Shown here: positions 19,111 through 49,203 of the stretch, one piece after another
Layout of the letters: every line of letters starts with the position of its first letter
How positions within the stretch are numbered: the first letter of the stretch is position 1
DNA from: a virus
Lineage: Duplodnaviria > Caudoviricetes
Length of the DNA stretch: 64,000 nt
IMG/VR virus record: IMGVR_UViG_3300044620_001883
Location: 32,001 to 96,000 of that record
Direction: 5' to 3' (one strand)
Program-made: the position numbers and the translations under genes
Notes under the pieces: generated by a model
Database searches by the model: none
Seen by the model: the letters and a program-made list of their open reading frames with translations, nothing else
Told to the model about the DNA's origin: nothing

Positions 19111-19670
19111 GTCTGACAAGAAACAATCCAAAGATCTCCCGGCGTGTGCTCATCTACGCCATGGACAAAGCCCTCATTCCCATGAAGGAAGGCACAGACA
19201 AAGTCATCGAGGAGCAGTGCCGCATTATCGGTACGGACCCAACAGGTGTGAATCTCAAATTCCCATGCACGCGGGCCGCCATCGCTCAGGCTGTTGGACG
19301 TAACGACGCCGGTAAACCGACACGCGCGCCGTTCCATTTGCTGCCGGAACACACACGTTTCCTCGTGTGTCTGGATGACGCTGGCCGTGTCGTGCGCACG
19401 GACACCATCAGCGACATCGAGCCCAGCCGTTTGGAGCGTTCCAAGGACGGTACAACCGTCGATGTGCGGGTGGAATCTGACGCACTAGGAACGCTGCGGG
19501 TGGAGAATTATCCGCAGCGCTTTGGTTTCGAAGCCGTGCGTCGGATCGTATCCAGCATGTCTGATGTGGAAGCTTTCAAGGTGGGTGATGCCTTCGGGGC
19601 TGCCACGATCTCGGCCATTGAAGGCAACTTGGTGCGTCTGACGCCCGAGGTGACGGCGGACGAGAGCTGA
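19107..19670 (+). CDS. Hypothetical protein
   Basis: ATGA overlap; 187 aa. Confidence 0.75.
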   Translation: MSLTRNNPKISRRVLIYAMDKALIPMKEGTDKVIEEQCRIIGTDPTGVNLKFPCTRAAIAQAVGRNDAGKPTRAPFHLLPEHTRFLVCLDDAGRVVRTDTISDIEPSRLERSKDGTTVDVRVESDALGTLRVENYPQRFGFEAVRRIVSSMSDVEAFKVGDAFGAATISAIEGNLVRLTPEVTADES

Positions 19671-19674
19671 GTTC

Positions 19675-19708
19675 GCAATACAGCGACCTTCCACGTTATA
19701 GATATTTG
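19675..19708 (+). promoter_or_regulatory. GCAATA-N15-TTATAGANNTTTG motif copy 2
   Basis: GCAATA 19675-80, TTATAGATATTTG 19696-19708; same spacing as copy 3. Confidence 0.65.
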
Positions 19709-20066
19709 GTGAAGAGATTCATCAACACGGTTGAGACCTGGGTCCGCAAGGGCAGCCAGGTCGCCCTGATCCAACTTGGTTGGATCGGGAAACCCCTCGC
19801 ACTATTGTGCGGGGTGGTTGTTGTAGGCGCACTTATCCTTGGCGGGTGTTCCGCCTTGGTTTGGGTGTTCGCCGACGGGCTGCGTATCCTGCTCGTCACC
19901 TTCGTGGTGGCGTGCATGGTGCCCTGGAATGCCGTCCTGCCTTTGTGCAGCGGTGTCGCAGCCCTTGTAGCGGTGGGAGAGTTGCTACCGACTCTCCTCA
20001 GCATACTGCCCACTTTGGGTAGTGTGTGGGTACTCCTAACGGTGCTGCGGGTCTTTCAGGGCCCGG
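19708..20066 (+). ncRNA. Structured leader/ncRNA L2
   Basis: At least 9 stems, e.g. GGTGAA-GAGA-TTCATC; GACCTGG/CCAGGTC enclosing GTCC-GCAA-GGGC; 11-bp stem 19765-19789; 9-bp stem 19976-19997; 12-bp stem 20001-20027; many G-U pairs. Confidence 0.6.
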
Positions 20067-20083
20067 AAAGGAGGTCAGCATGA
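19709..20083 (+). CDS. Hydrophobic ORF, possibly a by-product of the G/T-rich structured RNA
   Basis: GTG start, V/L/G-rich; overlaps L2 entirely. Confidence 0.3.
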   Translation: MKRFINTVETWVRKGSQVALIQLGWIGKPLALLCGVVVVGALILGGCSALVWVFADGLRILLVTFVVACMVPWNAVLPLCSGVAALVAVGELLPTLLSILPTLGSVWVLLTVLRVFQGPERRSA

Positions 20084-20859
20084 CAAAGCTGGCGTCCCTA
20101 CTAGGAGAGTTTGACGTCGATACATTGTTGGGCGACCCGCCCAGCGATGTACCTGCCGACCAGCCACCACACAATGGTGGGCTAGATCTGAACAGGATCA
20201 CAGGCGGAGGTGGGGATGGGGACGATGTATACCGGGGCCATCATCGGCCCTGCTATCAGTTCATCTACATCATACCTGGGGCAGGAGTGGTACCTCTATG
20301 GCGCCGCAAGTGCCTGAAGGAACTTCTGAGCTGTTGCCTGTTTCAGTTCCAGCAGCAATGGGAGCCCTGTCAGGAGTACCTGGAGATGTGGATGCTAGGG
20401 GTGACAAGTACCGCCAACTCTGAAATGGCATTCATGGTACCGGGCGGGGTGTCCGGGTGGGAGCACAAATCCATCTCAGAGCTCCGACAGCGTCATAGTC
20501 CGGAGCTTTCTGTGGTGACGTTGAAAATGAAGCTCCCACCATCTCCGTGGGAGCTTTGTCCTAACATCCACGTACCCGGCAGGGCCAGGAATGACAGCTG
20601 GGGAGTGCGCACCGTGCCTCTCAGCCAACTTCCCTTGGACGATCATTGGCCGCCCAAGATGGGGACAAGAATCCCATTTACCCCGAGCAGTACCGGCAGA
20701 GGAAAACTGCCAGGTCTGAACCTTACGGACAAGGAATGGGAGTGGGAAGGTGACTGGCGTCCAGGTGCCGGTGCAGTTGTCAATGCCGCGACGATCGGTA
20801 TGCAGGCGGGTGCCTTCTACACGGGTGTGTATGAGGATATGGGCGTAATCCCACGCTGA
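20080..20859 (+). CDS. Hypothetical protein downstream of L2
   Basis: Strong SD AAGGAGGT just upstream; 259 aa. Confidence 0.75.
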   Translation: MTKLASLLGEFDVDTLLGDPPSDVPADQPPHNGGLDLNRITGGGGDGDDVYRGHHRPCYQFIYIIPGAGVVPLWRRKCLKELLSCCLFQFQQQWEPCQEYLEMWMLGVTSTANSEMAFMVPGGVSGWEHKSISELRQRHSPELSVVTLKMKLPPSPWELCPNIHVPGRARNDSWGVRTVPLSQLPLDDHWPPKMGTRIPFTPSSTGRGKLPGLNLTDKEWEWEGDWRPGAGAVVNAATIGMQAGAFYTGVYEDMGVIPR

Positions 20860-30476: not shown

Positions 30477-31944
30477 CGTCAAGCAGGCGGACGCTGCTAT
30501 GTTCCCCACCGCAGGGATGCCAGCCCCAGCAGGGATGCCAGCCCCAGCAGCGATGCCAGCCCCAGCAGCGGCTCCCGCCCCTCCCGCCCCTGCCGCCCCT
30601 GTGGGAACCCACGACACTCATGTCAACCCAGGGTTCCTTGCCCGCATGCTGCTTGGAGGTCTGGTCGCCGGCGGCGGGGTAGGACTTCTGACCGCGTTGC
30701 TTCGGCAGCGGAACGCCATCGTGGAGGACAAAAACGAGGCAGCCGATTCTGACTTGGAGCTGCAACTACCGGCGAGACTTCGCAAGCAGGCCTCAGGTTT
30801 TTCTCAACTCATGAACCTGGCGGCCCCCGCCGGGGAGTGGTTCAATGAGAAAATGGCACCGGCTGAGCAGTACGTGCAGTCACCAATGCCCGCGGCAGGA
30901 AAACAACCACTGAGCGTGTGGGACTACATGTTGGGTGGTGCAGCGTTCCCCCTGGCTGCGCTGGGCGGGTTGCAGCTGACACGCAAGGCCTACCAAGGCT
31001 GGCGCGAGCGGGACGTGAAAGACAGGCTTGCGGAACAGCAGTCGCGCTACATGGCGGCGCTGCAGGCCGAAGCTGAAGGTACAAAGGAGGCGGCAGACGG
31101 GCGAGGCTTGAGTATGCCGCAGATCGCCGCTCTTGCGATTGGCGGCATACCGTTACTGACAGCCCTGACGTCGGGCTTGCTGACGGATCGTTTTCTGGAC
31201 CAGCAATTCCCGCTCAAACCCAAGATGCAGGCCCCGGTGAACCGAGTGCGTGTCGGGTTTGGGGAAGACCCGGCAGCAGAGGAGGAGGAAGACACGGAGG
31301 CTTTCAAGAAAGCATCCGACGCCCTGGTACATGTGGCTCTCCAGTTTGAAAAGCTTGCAGCCGATGCCGGTGTCAAAGCCGTCATCGCTGCAGTGGGACA
31401 CGGGATGCTCGATGACCTGGAACGTCATCAGTTCAAATATGGTTCGGACGCCATGCTGGATCTGGCCCAAGGAGCCAACCTTGAGTTGCCGTCGGATCCT
31501 TTGGTCAAGTGCGCAGCTGTGCGGGTCGCGGTGCAGTCTGGTATTGGGCCTGCTCTGATGCTCATGTCTGCCGGTGTTTTCGCTAATGCTGCACCGCACT
31601 GGCGCAAGCAAGGCGCACAGCTGGCGGAGTTCAACAAGACGGCGTCGCAGCTGATTAGTTGTACGGCTTCCGCCCTGGATCTGCATATCGCGGCACTGGC
31701 CGGCGAAGAAGTCATCAAGGCGGCGGCAGCGCAGGCTGCCCCACAAACACCGATGGAACAACTGCGTGCTATGCTTGCCCAACAGGGTGGCGCAGCAACT
31801 ATCGGTAAAGATGACGCGTCGCAAATGCACACGGGTACGCTACAGACGGCAGCCACGGGCTCCCAGTTCAGTGATTCCACACAGCAGGTCAACAGACCGC
31901 AGAACATCAAAGACGATATTGTAGACAACGTCCTGGTTAAATGA
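30445..31944 (+). CDS. Large KxA-motif virion/ejection-type protein
   Basis: 8 K-x-A motifs (KQAD, KQAS, KEAA, KKAS, KLAA, KCAA, KTAS, KAAA); Gly-rich hydrophobic helices. Confidence 0.75.
   Translation: MTQTTPIPNPNVKQADAAMFPTAGMPAPAGMPAPAAMPAPAAAPAPPAPAAPVGTHDTHVNPGFLARMLLGGLVAGGGVGLLTALLRQRNAIVEDKNEAADSDLELQLPARLRKQASGFSQLMNLAAPAGEWFNEKMAPAEQYVQSPMPAAGKQPLSVWDYMLGGAAFPLAALGGLQLTRKAYQGWRERDVKDRLAEQQSRYMAALQAEAEGTKEAADGRGLSMPQIAALAIGGIPLLTALTSGLLTDRFLDQQFPLKPKMQAPVNRVRVGFGEDPAAEEEEDTEAFKKASDALVHVALQFEKLAADAGVKAVIAAVGHGMLDDLERHQFKYGSDAMLDLAQGANLELPSDPLVKCAAVRVAVQSGIGPALMLMSAGVFANAAPHWRKQGAQLAEFNKTASQLISCTASALDLHIAALAGEEVIKAAAAQAAPQTPMEQLRAMLAQQGGAATIGKDDASQMHTGTLQTAATGSQFSDSTQQVNRPQNIKDDIVDNVLVK
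30511..30570 (+). repeat. 18-nt coding repeat (AGMPAP) x3
   Basis: GCAGGGATGCCAGCCCCA tandem copies. Confidence 0.9.
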
Positions 31945-36944: not shown

Positions 36945-37406
36945 ATGCATGTCGCGCGACTACTCCAGATGGCTGATTACCTTGATCGTCTGGATCCGTC
37001 GCGTTTCACCATGCAGGCCTGGGTGCGCGTACCGCAGGCTCCGCGTTCGCACTTGATCAACCAACTCCCACCGGACAGCCGAGCTTGCCCGGTGGGATGG
37101 CTTCCTGACTTGGATCCTGAAAACTGGTGTTGGGTGGCCGTGCCTGAATCCTCTGAAGGGAAAGTGGAGTTGACCATCTACCCCGTGTGCAAGGTAGCCG
37201 CGGTATGGTGTGGGGAGGGACTGCAACCACATAACCTTGACCTCAATCCGGTGGTGTGTCGGGTGTGGCAGCAGGTGCGAGAATGGTTCGAGCTGGATTC
37301 GTTACAGCTGACGGGGCGGCTATTTGAGAGCAGTGGGTATGGTAATGGCGAGCCGGAACCGGGTCAAGTGGCGCGACGCATACGCGAGACAGTTTGTGTG
37401 CAATAA
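36945..37406 (+). CDS. Hypothetical protein
   Basis: RLLQMADYL..FTMQAW..ACPVGW pattern. Confidence 0.7.
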   Translation: MHVARLLQMADYLDRLDPSRFTMQAWVRVPQAPRSHLINQLPPDSRACPVGWLPDLDPENWCWVAVPESSEGKVELTIYPVCKVAAVWCGEGLQPHNLDLNPVVCRVWQQVREWFELDSLQLTGRLFESSGYGNGEPEPGQVARRIRETVCVQ

Positions 37407-37433
37407 CACACACCAACGCGTTATAGAAATTTG
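37400..37433 (+). promoter_or_regulatory. GCAATA-N15-TTATAGANNTTTG motif copy 3
   Basis: GCAATA 37400-05, TTATAGAAATTTG 37421-33. Confidence 0.65.
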
Positions 37434-37752
37434 AGGACGGCTACGCTTGGTGGCGCCTCACCCATCTCCCGAAAGGGCACGAACTGGGGACCTTCGGGTC
37501 CCCGCCTGCGTACTGGCTCGCTACCAGCACGCAGGTTTGTTCGGCTTCGGGCTTTGCAGTGACTTCATCGGGTCATGCATTTGGGGAAATCAAACAGGTC
37601 ATGGGTGACCTGTACGATGGTTCGTGTTCACGAGACCCCACAGGGGCGGGAATCAATATGGGGCGGCATACGCCCCCACAGGGCCCAACTGGCCCGACCG
37701 CTGACCTGGCAGTTACTACCAGGATCGTTCCGGCGAAATCCGGTTCCACACC
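37433..37752 (+). ncRNA. Highly structured RNA L3 (multi-helix junction + candidate pseudoknot)
   Basis: cUUCGg 7-bp hairpin, GAAA hairpin, 7+4-bp and 8-bp stems, long-range CACGAAC/GTTCGTG, loop ATGGGT complementary to linker ACCCAT. Confidence 0.7.
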
Positions 37753-39060
37753 ATGCAGAACAAAAGCAAACAGATGAGTCTCTCCAACATGTTCGCCCAA
37801 GGACTCACATCTATGGGCGCTCTCCTGGAGAGCAATGAGCAGTTCGCGAACCTCGCGGCGGCAAGACCGCCGCGCTGCCGCTTGACCAGCAGCTACGCAG
37901 GCCCCAACGATTTCACGTTGGAGGTCATCGGGGAACAGATGCCGGCACCGGCGAAGGTGGATGAGGCGACGGTGCGCCTCATGAAGGGATGGCTGGCCAG
38001 TCGCCAGGTCATCACGGGAATCCTTCAGGGGGATAACCTCCTGGAGGACATGTCAGTCGAGGAGGCGATCGATCTCCTCGACCAGCACCGTATCATTAAG
38101 CCCCGTGACAAGAAGTCGCTGGGCATGACCGTGTGGGAACATGCAGTTCCGCACTGCTTGTTCCGTCAGTCCCTGGAGTTCCTCCAGAAAGCAGGACCTG
38201 GCCTCCCGGCAGCCTGGGACGTGGTGGAACTCCTCGAGGATGACGACGGCACCCAAGTGGGTGTCAGCCGCGCGGATCTCGAGGACTTGATCAAGAAGAT
38301 CAAGGCCGTCGAGGCCATCGTGACGAACCTGCCCAAGATCGCAGGTCCGTTCATCCCGCTTGGGGCCGCGACACCGCGCCCCTCGCTGGACACCTCGGAT
38401 ATCCAGCGCAACACCCGCTGGGTGCCGCTGAGCCGCTGGGGTGGTACGACGGCGTTCAAGTTGCGGATTGAGGTCCGCAACGGTCGTATGACGGCCATGT
38501 CGGCCGTTCCTGAACTGGAGGGCGGTACTCGGGAGAAACCCGAGGTCGTCCAACAGGCGCGCAACCCCGACCGCCACGGGCGTCCACAGCTGACGCCCCT
38601 GCCGTCTCTTCCGCCCCTGGCGGAAGACTGCCGGTTCCTCACGGACACTTTCGCACGCCGGGAGGAGATCCTCCAGGCAGCGCCAGAGTTCGCGAAATGG
38701 GCAGGAGCGGCAGGGCTACCGCTCTTCCTGCTTCAGCAGATCAACCTGACAAAGTCGGGGAAGGTCTGGCTGCAGGACGTGATGGATCAGCAGCAGCAGG
38801 CCAAGGAGGACTTGGCCGCTGCAAAGGCTGAGGCGGCCGCCGCTGTGGCCGTTGCAATGGGTGTTCAGAACGGAGAGGTCGGCGACGATTTCTCGATTCT
38901 GGAGAATGCGATTTCGTCCGCACCGATTGCGGATGAAATCGAGATCGAGCCTGAGGTGATTTCGTCCGCACCGATTGCGGATGAGATCGAGATCGAGCCT
39001 GAGGTCGAGGCAACACCAGCTGAGGCCGAAACGACACCCGCCGAGATGGCAGTTGTTTAA
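37753..39060 (+). CDS. Hypothetical protein with acidic repeat tail, downstream of L3
   Basis: 435 aa, strongly C/G-ending codons. Confidence 0.85.
   Translation: MQNKSKQMSLSNMFAQGLTSMGALLESNEQFANLAAARPPRCRLTSSYAGPNDFTLEVIGEQMPAPAKVDEATVRLMKGWLASRQVITGILQGDNLLEDMSVEEAIDLLDQHRIIKPRDKKSLGMTVWEHAVPHCLFRQSLEFLQKAGPGLPAAWDVVELLEDDDGTQVGVSRADLEDLIKKIKAVEAIVTNLPKIAGPFIPLGAATPRPSLDTSDIQRNTRWVPLSRWGGTTAFKLRIEVRNGRMTAMSAVPELEGGTREKPEVVQQARNPDRHGRPQLTPLPSLPPLAEDCRFLTDTFARREEILQAAPEFAKWAGAAGLPLFLLQQINLTKSGKVWLQDVMDQQQQAKEDLAAAKAEAAAAVAVAMGVQNGEVGDDFSILENAISSAPIADEIEIEPEVISSAPIADEIEIEPEVEATPAEAETTPAEMAVV
38911..39006 (+). repeat. 2 x 48-nt coding repeat (ISSAPIADEIEIEPEV)
   Basis: Direct tandem copy. 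Confidence 0.95.
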
Positions 39061-39068
39061 GTGACCAC

Positions 39069-39122
39069 GGCGTGGGCCGGCTCAGGGGGTAACACCCCTG
39101 GGCCGGTTCCCGCCATCATTTT
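39069..39122 (+). terminator. Probable intrinsic terminator
   Basis: CCGGCTCAGGGG/CCCCTGGGCCGG 12-bp stem with outer GGCG/CGCC, then ATCATTTT. Confidence 0.6.
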
Positions 39123-39174
39123 AGCTATTGCGTCTTGCTGTGTACTGCTTAGATGTAAGCATCATATAGTACAC

Positions 39175-39582
39175 ATGCACTTCGATCCTCCGGAACTCGC
39201 CGTCATTGCCGACCTAATCTTGTGGTTACTCCAGGACGGTAACATCGCCGACCAAGTGACGCAGCATGGCATCAGCCTCCCGGATTTGAAGCTCAAGCTC
39301 CTGCAGGTACAAGAGACCAGTCATGACAGTGAACCCCTGTTGTTGGATGAACCAAGCAGTGATTACGAGGAGCGCAGACGCCGCAAGCCAGCCACCGTGA
39401 AGGAGAAATCACGGAACATAGCCACGCTGGTAAATTGCTACAGCAAGAAGTCGCTGACAGGTATGCAGCTACAGGAGGCTTTCTTGGAGTCCCCGAAGCA
39501 GGACCTCGTTGATTTTATCATGCTTTCACTTTTAGGATGGGCACCCCCACAGCAGCGGAAGAAATTCCCAGCGGTCAATTAG
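39175..39582 (+). CDS. Hypothetical protein
   Basis: ACACATG start; 135 aa. Confidence 0.65.
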   Translation: MHFDPPELAVIADLILWLLQDGNIADQVTQHGISLPDLKLKLLQVQETSHDSEPLLLDEPSSDYEERRRRKPATVKEKSRNIATLVNCYSKKSLTGMQLQEAFLESPKQDLVDFIMLSLLGWAPPQQRKKFPAVN

Positions 39583-46868: not shown

Positions 46869-47309
46869 ATGTTCAAAGCACCTCTCATCAACGCCGCCGC
46901 CAACACAAGCCCGAGCGCGCACATCAGACTCAACTACGGCACCCCAAGTGGGGAGGCCCTGCCGAGTCTGACATCCAGCCCAATGGCGGATGCGCTGCTG
47001 CGCTTTGGTCGGGCGGCTCTAATGCCCGCAGGGCGTGCTGAGACGTTTGAACCTTCAACATACCGCCTGCCGAATCTCATAGGGCGCATGAACGGCAGTT
47101 ACGGGGTGGGTGGTGAGTTCTACGCAAAGGCGCTCGGCAACGTGGAGGCAGCGCAACAGCTTGCAGCGCAGTCTCAGGCTGGTCTCATGGCCGCCGTGCA
47201 GGGCACCGGTGCCGCCCCCTACGCGCTACCGCTGTATGAAACCTTGCAGGACCCACGTTGGGGACCTGAGGCCAGCAATCTCCGCAACGCGCTTTTCCAT
47301 GCATCGTGA
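46869..47309 (+). CDS. Hypothetical protein (probably virion)
   Basis: Ala-rich, between virion and RNAP genes. Confidence 0.7.
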   Translation: MFKAPLINAAANTSPSAHIRLNYGTPSGEALPSLTSSPMADALLRFGRAALMPAGRAETFEPSTYRLPNLIGRMNGSYGVGGEFYAKALGNVEAAQQLAAQSQAGLMAAVQGTGAAPYALPLYETLQDPRWGPEASNLRNALFHAS

Positions 47310-49203
47310 AGTCGTTAACGCCCAGTATGAATTGGATCGGCGCCCTGAAGAGGACGTCGATTTCGAGTTCATGTCTCCCAATCAATTCGTCGGTCCCAAT
47401 GTCGGGCTGATCCCGCTGCAGAATGCCGTCCAACCTACCCGGTTGTTCTACGGTGCCCGTTTCGCCAACCAGGCACAACCACTGGTAAAACCAGAGGCAC
47501 CATGGATCCAGACCAGCATGGATGACACGCCGGACACGTCATTTGACGACATGCTTGGCGGTACGGCCGGCGCTATCCGCTCTGACGGGGACGCCACGGT
47601 TGAGGATGTGGCGGACACACAAATCAAACTGCGACTGGCAGATGGAACTCCCAAGGTGATCGGGCTGTATCGCAACATGCCCTTCAACCGGTACAGCGGA
47701 ATCACACAGACCCCGACGGTCACGAAGGGACAGACTGTCAAAGCCAAGGACCTGCTGGCCCGTTCCAACTTCACAGACGAGAAGGGTTCCCTGGCGTTAG
47801 GCCTCAACGCCCGTGTGGGGGTTGTTCCCTTCAAGGGGTTCTCGATGGATGATGCCATGGTGGTCTCGGACAAGTTCGCAAAGCGGGCCACCAGCCTCCA
47901 TCTGGATTCCATCGACAAGGACTTTTCAGGGGGCAACCTGAAGAGCGGCCAAGACCACTTCAAGTCACTGTTCCCTGACATGTACACCAAAGATCAGCTC
48001 ACGCTGCTGGACGAGCACGGCATCGTGCGTCCAGGTCAGGTTGTACAACCGGGCGACCCTCTGATCCTGGCCACCCGTCCGCGCAACTTCAATTCAGCCC
48101 AGTCACAAAGCCTGGGGCGCTTGGGCAAGGTAGCGAGACAGCTCCGCGCGGATGCCTCTGTGCAGTGGGACAGCGCAGTGCCAGGTACCGTCACGGACGT
48201 GGTGCGCAAGAATGACGGATCTGTGAAGGTGCTGGTCGAGAGTCATCGCCCCATGCAGAAGGGCGACAAGCTTGTCCTGCGCTCGGGCCAGAAGGGGATC
48301 GTCTCAGCGGTCATCCCCGAGCATGAGATGCTCCGCACAGCGTCGGGTGAACCGCTGGAGATGCTGCTCAACCAACAGGGTCTCCCATCGCGTGCCAACC
48401 CCTCGCTGTTACTTGAGATCCTTCTTGGAAAAGTTGCAGCCAAGTCAGGCACCCCAATGAAGCTCCCGGCGTTCAATCCGAACGAGGACAGTTGGATAGA
48501 CTTTGTGGCGGCCAAGCTCAAGGAAGCAGGCATGACCGACAAGGAGACTGTGTTCGATCCCAAGGACAACCGCAAGCTGGACAGGCCGATCACAACCGGC
48601 AATGCCTACGTGTTGAAGCTGCACCACATCGCAGAGCACAAATACGACGCACGTGGGCAAGGGGGGTATGACCAGGACGGACAACCTTCGAAGGGGTCTG
48701 GCCTTGGTGGCGGCGCCAAACGTCGCTCAGGTCTCGAGACTACCGTGATGCTCAGCAGCGGCGCGTACAACAACCTCCGGGAGTCCAGCACATTGACGGG
48801 GCAGCAGAACGATGATTTCTGGCGCACCTTCAGGTCAGGGCAAACCCCCAAAGCTCCAGGCTCTCCTTTTGTGTTCCAAAAGTTCAGGGCACTTCTGAAC
48901 GGTGCTGGCATGCACGCGCGCGAAATGGGCGGCGGCAAACTTCGGTTGGGTCTCCTGACTGACAAACAGCTCGAGCAATTCAAACCCCTGAAAGTACATT
49001 CCGGTGAGACCATTGACTTCCGCACCTTGGCTCCCAAGGCAGGCGGTCTCTTCGACCCGGCATTGGTGGCCAACAAGAACTGGGGTTACATTGACCTCCC
49101 GGAGCCTATGCCGAACCCAGCCGCAGAGGACACCATTCGCCAGCTGCTTGGGATCACTCGCAAGGACTTCGAGGAAGTTCTTGCCGGTACTCGGCCGCTG
49201 TGA
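47299..49203 (+). CDS. RNA polymerase beta C-terminal fragment fused to the beta-prime N-terminal segment
   Basis: GFSMDDA, GDKLVLRSGQKG, GLPSRAN, LKLHH..ARG, GGGAKR; then LGLL..ETIDFRTLAPKAGGLFD..WGYIDLPEP (RpoC region A without the Zn ribbon). Confidence 0.92.
   Translation: MHREVVNAQYELDRRPEEDVDFEFMSPNQFVGPNVGLIPLQNAVQPTRLFYGARFANQAQPLVKPEAPWIQTSMDDTPDTSFDDMLGGTAGAIRSDGDATVEDVADTQIKLRLADGTPKVIGLYRNMPFNRYSGITQTPTVTKGQTVKAKDLLARSNFTDEKGSLALGLNARVGVVPFKGFSMDDAMVVSDKFAKRATSLHLDSIDKDFSGGNLKSGQDHFKSLFPDMYTKDQLTLLDEHGIVRPGQVVQPGDPLILATRPRNFNSAQSQSLGRLGKVARQLRADASVQWDSAVPGTVTDVVRKNDGSVKVLVESHRPMQKGDKLVLRSGQKGIVSAVIPEHEMLRTASGEPLEMLLNQQGLPSRANPSLLLEILLGKVAAKSGTPMKLPAFNPNEDSWIDFVAAKLKEAGMTDKETVFDPKDNRKLDRPITTGNAYVLKLHHIAEHKYDARGQGGYDQDGQPSKGSGLGGGAKRRSGLETTVMLSSGAYNNLRESSTLTGQQNDDFWRTFRSGQTPKAPGSPFVFQKFRALLNGAGMHAREMGGGKLRLGLLTDKQLEQFKPLKVHSGETIDFRTLAPKAGGLFDPALVANKNWGYIDLPEPMPNPAAEDTIRQLLGITRKDFEEVLAGTRPL

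Follow-up and report, generated by a model that had tools for sequence, protein, structure and literature searches.

Protection of transcripts by 5'-terminal hairpins is established in Escherichia coli, where the leader of the ompA type is a 5'-terminal stem-loop that stabilizes its mRNA. The leader of phage T4 gene 32 is autoregulated and carries a 5' pseudoknot. In giant (phiKZ-like) Pseudomonas phages, RNAs derived from 5'UTRs have been described, for example sRNA005 of 201phi2-1 upstream of the gp277/phiKZ gp182 tail gene; these RNAs are short and are defined by premature termination in long-read RNA-seq (PMC11512511).

We analyzed a 64,000-nt stretch of DNA (the window) from an uncultured phage. 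The source IMG/VR record is 121 kb long with an estimated completeness of 59%, and contigs with a matching protein set reach 200 kb. The genes of the window are tightly packed and lie nearly all on the plus strand; among them are genes for a family-B-like DNA polymerase, for helicases, and for pieces resembling RNA-polymerase beta. The region studied here is the sole large gap within this co-oriented, densely packed gene row. Comparative analysis of the sequence indicates that the approximately 320-nt stretch at 37433-37752 is a genuine folded RNA maintained in evolution, and this RNA is probably the long 5' leader of the mRNA of the 435-aa gene that starts at 37753. Its most likely character is that of a lineage-specific, modular, cis-acting, structured leader of a few closely related uncultured 200-kb phages.

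Like the RNAs of the giant Pseudomonas phages, this element is structured, is positionally conserved upstream of one conserved gene, and has a secondary structure common to its relatives. Unlike them, it is about 320 nt long, contains a three-way junction, belongs to an unrelated group of uncultured phages, and has no plus-strand terminator. That is, no intrinsic-terminator-like site at which premature termination could define a 5'UTR-derived small RNA was found on the plus strand at 37200-37900. The element resembles the ompA and gene 32 leaders in the hairpin at its extreme 5' end, in a possible pseudoknot near that end, and in a conserved operator-like sequence that separates the structure from an unstructured initiation region. 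It differs from both in that it is far longer and more branched and in that the pseudoknot does not occur in all lineages. Unlike the gene 32 system, the 435-aa protein has no fold or family match suggesting nucleic acid binding.

Putative promoter, transcript start and downstream gene

The features that bound the leader are the following.

37399-37433, plus strand: promoter-like element, TGCAAT (37399-404), 17-nt spacer, TATAGA (37422-27), then AATTTG
37407-37752: intergenic gap of 346 nt between a 153-aa ORF and the 435-aa ORF starting at 37753
37433-37459, plus strand: H1 hairpin, GAGG..GCUAC-GCUUG-GUGGC..CCUC, at the putative transcript start
37753-39060, plus strand: the served gene, encoding the conserved 435-aa protein

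The 17-nt spacing of the bipartite motif is identical 5' of the homologous gene in six relatives (L002, L003, L004, L032, L035, and L036), and both motif and spacing are kept even at 25-36% protein identity, as in the last three of these. The consensus of the relatives is TGCAAT, a 17-nt spacer, and TATAGA or TATAAA, followed by A/T and TTG. Because TGCAAT lies outside the upstream ORF in L036, the motif is not a coding constraint. A generic sigma-70 scan gave no call for the element at 37399-37427. Judging from its conserved sequence, we regard it as a sigma-70-like promoter, from which transcription would proceed rightward and read through into the 435-aa gene. All relatives, close and distant alike, have a hairpin directly 3' of the promoter, and since it stands 6 nt past TATAGA in every case, it would lie within a few nucleotides of the likely start. 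In H1, the U.G pair of the window is U-A in L002.

We read 37433-37752 as the leader of the 37753 mRNA because of the promoter upstream, the lack of a plus-strand terminator, and the hairpin near the likely start; promoter and start codon lie on one strand, with no terminator between them in the sequence. The preliminary description of this DNA had held that the complexity of the RNA exceeds that of an ordinary 5' UTR. That claim is at odds with the position of the element, which a conserved promoter precedes and a conserved gene follows, and with the lack of a plus-strand terminator. On the minus strand, the leader hairpins at 37676-37660 and 37613-37594 read as terminator-like (a stem and a T-rich tail) and might keep antisense transcription from reaching the upstream genes. 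At 47110-49203 the window encodes an RNA polymerase beta-like protein (PHROG 3295 and 24349). The phage thus supplies at least part of a multisubunit RNA polymerase itself, yet the leader promoter looks host-type.

The AF2 model of the 435-aa protein (pLDDT 73.8) combines a mixed alpha/beta core with a long helix; the N-terminus of the protein is disordered and its tail is acidic. The tail (38970-39060, residues ~390-435) contains two copies of the tandem repeat SSAPIADEIEIEPEV, and its length varies in the relatives. Neither this protein nor the product of the 153-aa ORF belongs to a Pfam or PHROG family, and for the 435-aa protein nothing usable was obtained from Pfam, PHROGs, ESM Atlas, Foldseek against PDB, BFVD and AFDB clusters, or VIA-align (best Z 4.6). 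Because of the acidic tail, we considered a self-regulating single-strand-binding protein like gp32, and we rejected it since it found only three BFVD rows named SSB at E~1. The ATG at 37753 and the residues that follow are conserved as the start. In every lineage the start AUG stands in a C/A-rich, unpaired stretch just past the last hairpin of the leader. Most genes of the phage have no Shine-Dalgarno sequence, and the absence of one at 37753 is therefore uninformative; we discarded it as a special feature.

Covarying stems and dispensable modules

Relatives of the leader were reached only through the downstream 435-aa protein, which has 13 homologs among 1.84 billion representatives, three of them close (91, 82, and 62% identity) and ten distant. 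Members of its protein cluster added only near-identical copies of four lineages. The leader was thus compared in four versions, namely that of the window (with L039 and L040), the L002 type (L002, L038, and L041), the L003 type (L003 and L042), and the L004 type (L004 and L043, which differ at few bases). The 5' domain contains the following stems.

37468-37551, plus strand: three-way junction domain formed by P1, P2, and P3, with compensatory changes
37468-72/37547-51, 37476-78/37544-46, and 37480-84/37539-43, plus strand: P1
37486-92/37497-503, plus strand: P2, GGGGACC-TTCG-GGTCCCC, with a UUCG loop
37505-16/37524-35, plus strand: P3, CCTGCGTACTGG/CCAGCACGCAGG within 37505-35

In the alignment of this domain, 92.5% of the cells pair and 12 of the 32 pairs are changed on both sides, a result that none of 500 shuffles reached. 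When the partners were slid by one column, the pairing fell to less than 47%. P3 keeps 11-12 bp with both-side changes in 9 of its 12 pairs, and P2 has such changes in 2 of 7 pairs (two independent changes from G-C to A-U), with UUCG as its loop in the window and UGCG in L004. In P1, the pair 37480:37543 occurs as C-G, U-A, and U.G among the lineages. RNAalifold counted 15 compensatory pairs and returned the three-way junction together with the P4 and local P6 hairpins listed below. The preliminary description of a structured RNA with a multi-way junction is thus upheld by covariation and by the shuffle control. The domain also contains 9 G.U cells against 2 A.C cells; since a G.U pair is an A.C mismatch on the other strand, this excess points to an RNA on the plus strand. 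The covariation rests on four independent lineages and the shuffle controls ignore relatedness, so these statistics are thin. The nucleotides in the junction vary among the lineages (U/A/-, G/A, UUU/CGU), and no conserved unpaired pocket nucleotides were found in it.

The remainder of the leader consists of hairpins.

37555-37579, plus strand: P4, UGCA-G-UGACUU CAUC GGGUCA-UGCA
37594-37613, plus strand: P5, ACAGGUC-AUGGGU-GACCUGU, whose loop is the 3' half of the candidate pseudoknot
37614-37629, plus strand: P6, local hairpin ACGA-UGGU-UCGU, overlapping GUUCGUGUUC (37620-29)
37636-37646, plus strand: small hairpin CCCC-ACA-GGGG, read from the sequence
37660-37676, plus strand: P7, GGGGCG-GCAUA-CGCCCC
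37681-37695, plus strand: P8, GGGCC-CAACU-GGCCC
37702-37727, plus strand: P9, predicted hairpin UGA-CCUGG ... CCAGG-A-UCG, inside the invariant block CUGACCUGGCAG
37730-37743, plus strand: P10, predicted hairpin CCGG-CGAAAU-CCGG, ending 9 nt before the start codon

By direct reading, all stems of the preliminary description were located where it had placed them, including those at 37555-79 and 37594-37613 and the five 3' stems at 37636-46, 37660-76, 37681-95, 37705-23, and 37730-43. A direct repeat that it had listed, CCCCACAGGG, also exists; its second copy starts at 37675 rather than 37674, and the repeat is not kept in the relatives.

P4 pairs in 10 of 10 columns in the window, 8 of 10 in L003, and 9 of 10 in L004, with two compensatory positions. 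P5 is CAGACC/GGUCUG in L003, with two compensatory pairs, and its place is taken by a different hairpin in L004. The local P6 hairpin covaries (C-G to U-A in L004), and the equivalent of the small hairpin in L004 is CCACC-CAG-GGUGG. Two pairs of P7 show compensatory change between the lineages, from G-C to A-U. P8 occurs in the window, L002, and L003 (with a G.U pair in L003) and is missing from L004 and L043. P9 is identical in sequence in all lineages, without changed pairs, and its 12-nt identical run is among the longest of the leader between the window and L004. P10 is kept in all lineages, with one change from G-C to G.U in L004 and L043.

Between the window and L004, the identity of the leader is 55.8%, and that of the two flanking genes is 66.9% and 59.8%; the leader thus changes about as fast as the adjacent coding DNA. 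It nevertheless holds invariant islands of 12-13 nt, two of them in this comparison. The L002 lineage, which is represented by three contigs from different runs, lacks about 100 nt matching 37553-37654 and, with them, P4, P5, P6, and the small CCCC-ACA-GGGG hairpin. A stretch of that length in the middle of the leader is therefore dispensable.

The plus strand folds at -145 kcal/mol, with a z of -3.2 against its own dinucleotide shuffles, and the minus strand does no worse (z -5.4). After adjustment for GC, the stability is ordinary (z -1.5), and 23 of 398 other 320-nt windows of the phage are equal or better. Thermodynamics alone is thus weak evidence, and the real support for the fold is comparative. 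The strongest GC-adjusted folding of the window is at 37921-39200, inside the 435-aa coding region, and at 19361-20320, around another leader at 19.7 kb, with residuals of -25 to -43 kcal/mol per 320 nt.

A search of the whole window with Rfam 15 at gathering thresholds, which had been proposed with the preliminary description, returned no family (GOLLD, ROOL, HEARO, OLE, riboswitches, and ribozymes were included). At E values up to 10, the region 37300-37850 gave noise, the best being sX13 with 21.3 bits against a threshold of 50 (E 0.079), and no ribozyme model of Rfam matched in the region. No tRNA-like gene was found in the leader region. Elsewhere in the window, ARAGORN called a tRNA-Ser (GGA) at 31387-31463, within the ORF-rich segment 30340-31944.

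Alternative partners of the 5' strand

The preliminary description had the junction closed by a helix between CACGAAC (37478-84) and GTTCGTG (37620-26). This pairing is present and extends to 10 bp, between GGGCACGAAC at 37475-84 and GTTCGTGTTC at 37620-29. Across the window, L003, L004, and L043, 95% of its cells are paired (10 of 10, 8 of 10, 10 of 10, and 10 of 10 columns, respectively), with one compensatory pair. In the shuffle control 71 of 500 were as good, which is not significant. The 5' strand of this long-range helix doubles as the 5' strand of the local P1, and the two helices exclude each other; its 3' strand also takes part in the covarying local hairpin P6. All four lineages retain P1, even L002, which has lost the distal strand, and RNAalifold favors the local helix over the long-range one. 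In constrained folding, the two global folds lie within 1.6 kcal/mol of each other in the window, L004, and L043, and in L003 the local fold is favored by 13 kcal/mol. As a complementarity conserved in the sequence, the long-range helix is real, but it competes with a better conserved local helix and is not simply the closing stem of the junction. Since the two share strands and both complementarities are kept, we take the long-range helix to be an alternative to the three-way junction and not its replacement.

That the shared strand is invariant is consistent with an obligation to satisfy two partners. A bistable switch is thus possible, although four lineages cannot prove it. In its full form, this reading describes a device in which GGGCACGAAC (37475-84) alternates between the junction and the 10-bp helix with 37620-29, is locked by the pseudoknot, and controls a conserved early protein; we consider this doubtful. 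Either a factor of phage or host origin or the course of co-transcriptional folding would decide between the folds, and the phages using the device would form a clade with 200-kb genomes and a split RNA polymerase of their own. As in riboswitch and attenuator leaders, GGGCACGAAC is invariant, has a near or a distant partner, and both pairings are kept. Unlike in such leaders, the distal partner is deleted in one viable lineage. The leader also differs from riboswitches: its junction contains no pocket of conserved unpaired nucleotides, an expression platform in the form of a terminator or a sequestered ribosome site is likewise absent, and no riboswitch of Rfam matched.

The candidate pseudoknot joins the loop of P5 to a linker near the 5' end.

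37459-37467, plus strand: single-stranded linker CACCCAUCU, the 5' half of the candidate pseudoknot

The complementarity of ACCCAT (37460-65) to ATGGGT (37601-06) noted earlier was confirmed. In the window, CACCCAU pairs with AUGGGUG (37601-07) over 7 bp at -10.1 kcal/mol, and 10 of 2000 shuffled linkers were as good. Pairing over 7 bp is also possible between CACCUUU and GGAGGUG in L004 and L043, where some pairs are changed and two are G.U (-7.2 kcal/mol; 133 of 2000 to about 135 of 2000 shuffles), and part of the partner sits in a stem. Two one-sided changes break the pairing in L003, where the remaining -3.4 kcal/mol is no better than shuffles, and L002 has an unchanged linker but has lost the partner. 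The candidate pseudoknot is thus only partly conserved, being strong in the window, weaker in L004, broken in L003, and deprived of its partner in L002.

Distribution, rival explanations and proposed role

In all recovered copies (L002, L003, L004, and L038-L043), the element immediately precedes the homologous gene. The covariance model R1, built on the three-way junction, found one copy in the genome and matched only the four close lineages, with no match in the leaders of the distant relatives. These relatives have the same promoter and gene, with leaders of only about 100-165 nt and different hairpins. Deposited phages showed no DNA similarity, and single-protein and alignment scans of viral and metagenome contigs gave no relatives. 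The DNA pattern CTGACCTGGCAG..CCAGGA matched 26 loci, of which R1 scored none, and we regard them as chance matches. The pattern TCCCGAAAGGGCAYGAAC had one match, inside a coding region, and a stricter pattern had none in the metagenome contigs. Because relatives were collected via the protein, copies elsewhere would be visible only to the DNA and model searches, and those searches found none. In L004 and L043, a 208-aa ORF lies between the promoter and the element, as follows.

L004 2766-3669 and L043 812-1438: region of the inserted 208-aa ORF, with its own hairpin-rich leader of 277 nt

This ORF has no Pfam family and no homolog in the genome record analyzed here. Since the element still adjoins the 435-aa gene despite the insertion, it is tied to the gene rather than to the transcript start.

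The element had been proposed as a new large noncoding RNA or ribozyme class. A free-standing RNA of this kind, that is, a molecule of its own of about 320 nt acting in trans or cleaving itself, is in our judgment unlikely. Its many stems, UUCG loop, GAAA sequence, and covarying multi-way junction, together with the lack of an Rfam family, would suit such an RNA; small RNAs derived from 5'UTRs are reported in giant Pseudomonas phages (PMC11512511), and in L004 and L043 the element stands between two ORFs and might be excised by processing. But the same gene is always adjacent, a plus-strand intrinsic terminator was not found, and about 100 nt of the core can go, as it has in L002. The element is moreover confined to four close lineages, whereas distant relatives with the same promoter and gene have shorter leaders that are not homologous, and its junction nucleotides vary, unlike those of catalytic or ligand-binding cores. 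Still less probable is a chance run of GC-rich hairpins in a spacer, conserved only through recent common ancestry. Between lineages at 62% protein identity, P3 keeps its 11-12 bp through nine both-side changes, P2, P4, P5, and P7 compensate too, the pairing collapses after the one-column slide, and there are the invariant islands of 12-13 nt. All of this stands against chance, even though the GC-adjusted folding energy is ordinary for the genome, the overall identity is no higher than in the flanking genes, and whole modules have been gained and lost.

UNCG-type loops, to which that of P2 belongs, are RNA-specific stabilizers. This loop, the 9 to 2 ratio of G.U to A.C cells, and the conserved promoter immediately upstream make it very improbable that the inverted repeats act at the DNA level, as a replication origin, packaging site, or protein-binding array. 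Dense inverted repeats in a non-coding gap and the z of -5.4 on the minus strand would agree with such an element; repeated binding-site words and an AT-rich unwinding region were not found in the sequence. We give hardly any credence to the view that the gap is coding, either for a small protein or for extra N-terminal residues of the 435-aa protein. The window does have open frames of 53-108 codons, and no stop interrupts the gene's own reading frame along the leader of L004 and L043; one gene caller extended the protein to 486 aa. In the window, however, this frame contains 3 stops, the lineages differ by indels of 1, 2, and 95 nt, and the substitutions occur as paired changes in stems and not at third codon positions. 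The gap is therefore not coding, in agreement with the conserved start at 37753.

We thus return to a leader that probably belongs to the mRNA of the 435-aa gene and would act in cis on its own message. It may be described as a chain of modules, consisting of the 5'-end hairpin, the three-way junction, the dispensable P4-P6, and the 3' set P7-P10. By analogy with known leaders, the 5'-terminal hairpin and the dense stems may protect the transcript from 5'-end-dependent decay. The invariant parts UCCCGAAAGGGCA-GAAC, CUGACCUGGCAG..CCAGGA, and CCGGCG-AA-U-CGG may form an operator that sets translation. Such an operator could work via a bound protein or via a switch between the junction and the 10-bp helix 37475-84/37620-29.

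The leader enlarges the very sparse list of RNA elements from uncultured giant phages by a well-supported structure, with several hairpins and a covarying three-way junction, and it lies outside every curated family. Its value is that of an annotation and an experimental candidate, as a clade-restricted leader and not a new class. If the switch were true, it would offer a compact model of how phages whose hosts make little use of Shine-Dalgarno sequences control genes post-transcriptionally.

The locus also defines a conserved promoter type, by which this phage would drive long leaders. One further plus-strand site in the record, at 19674, has the complete bipartite motif, and its downstream half TATAGAACTTTG alone occurs at about 1599, upstream of a 250-nt leader. 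The region 19674-20080 consists of about 370 nt with a possible small hydrophobic ORF, followed by an ATG at 20081. The copy at about 1599 is weaker (CTGGAT-N17-TATAGA, in which only the TATAGAACTTTG half matches well), and 1577-1863 holds the 250-nt non-coding leader, followed by a 596-aa gene at 1864. We looked for a likeness among the three long leaders of the window and rejected it, as the promoter motif alone is common to them. At 1850-1863, directly 5' of the ATG at 1864, stand the 10 nt GGATCACCTC, which we take to be the 3'-terminal sequence of bacterial 16S rRNA, that is, the anti-Shine-Dalgarno strand itself and not its complement; this may be chance.
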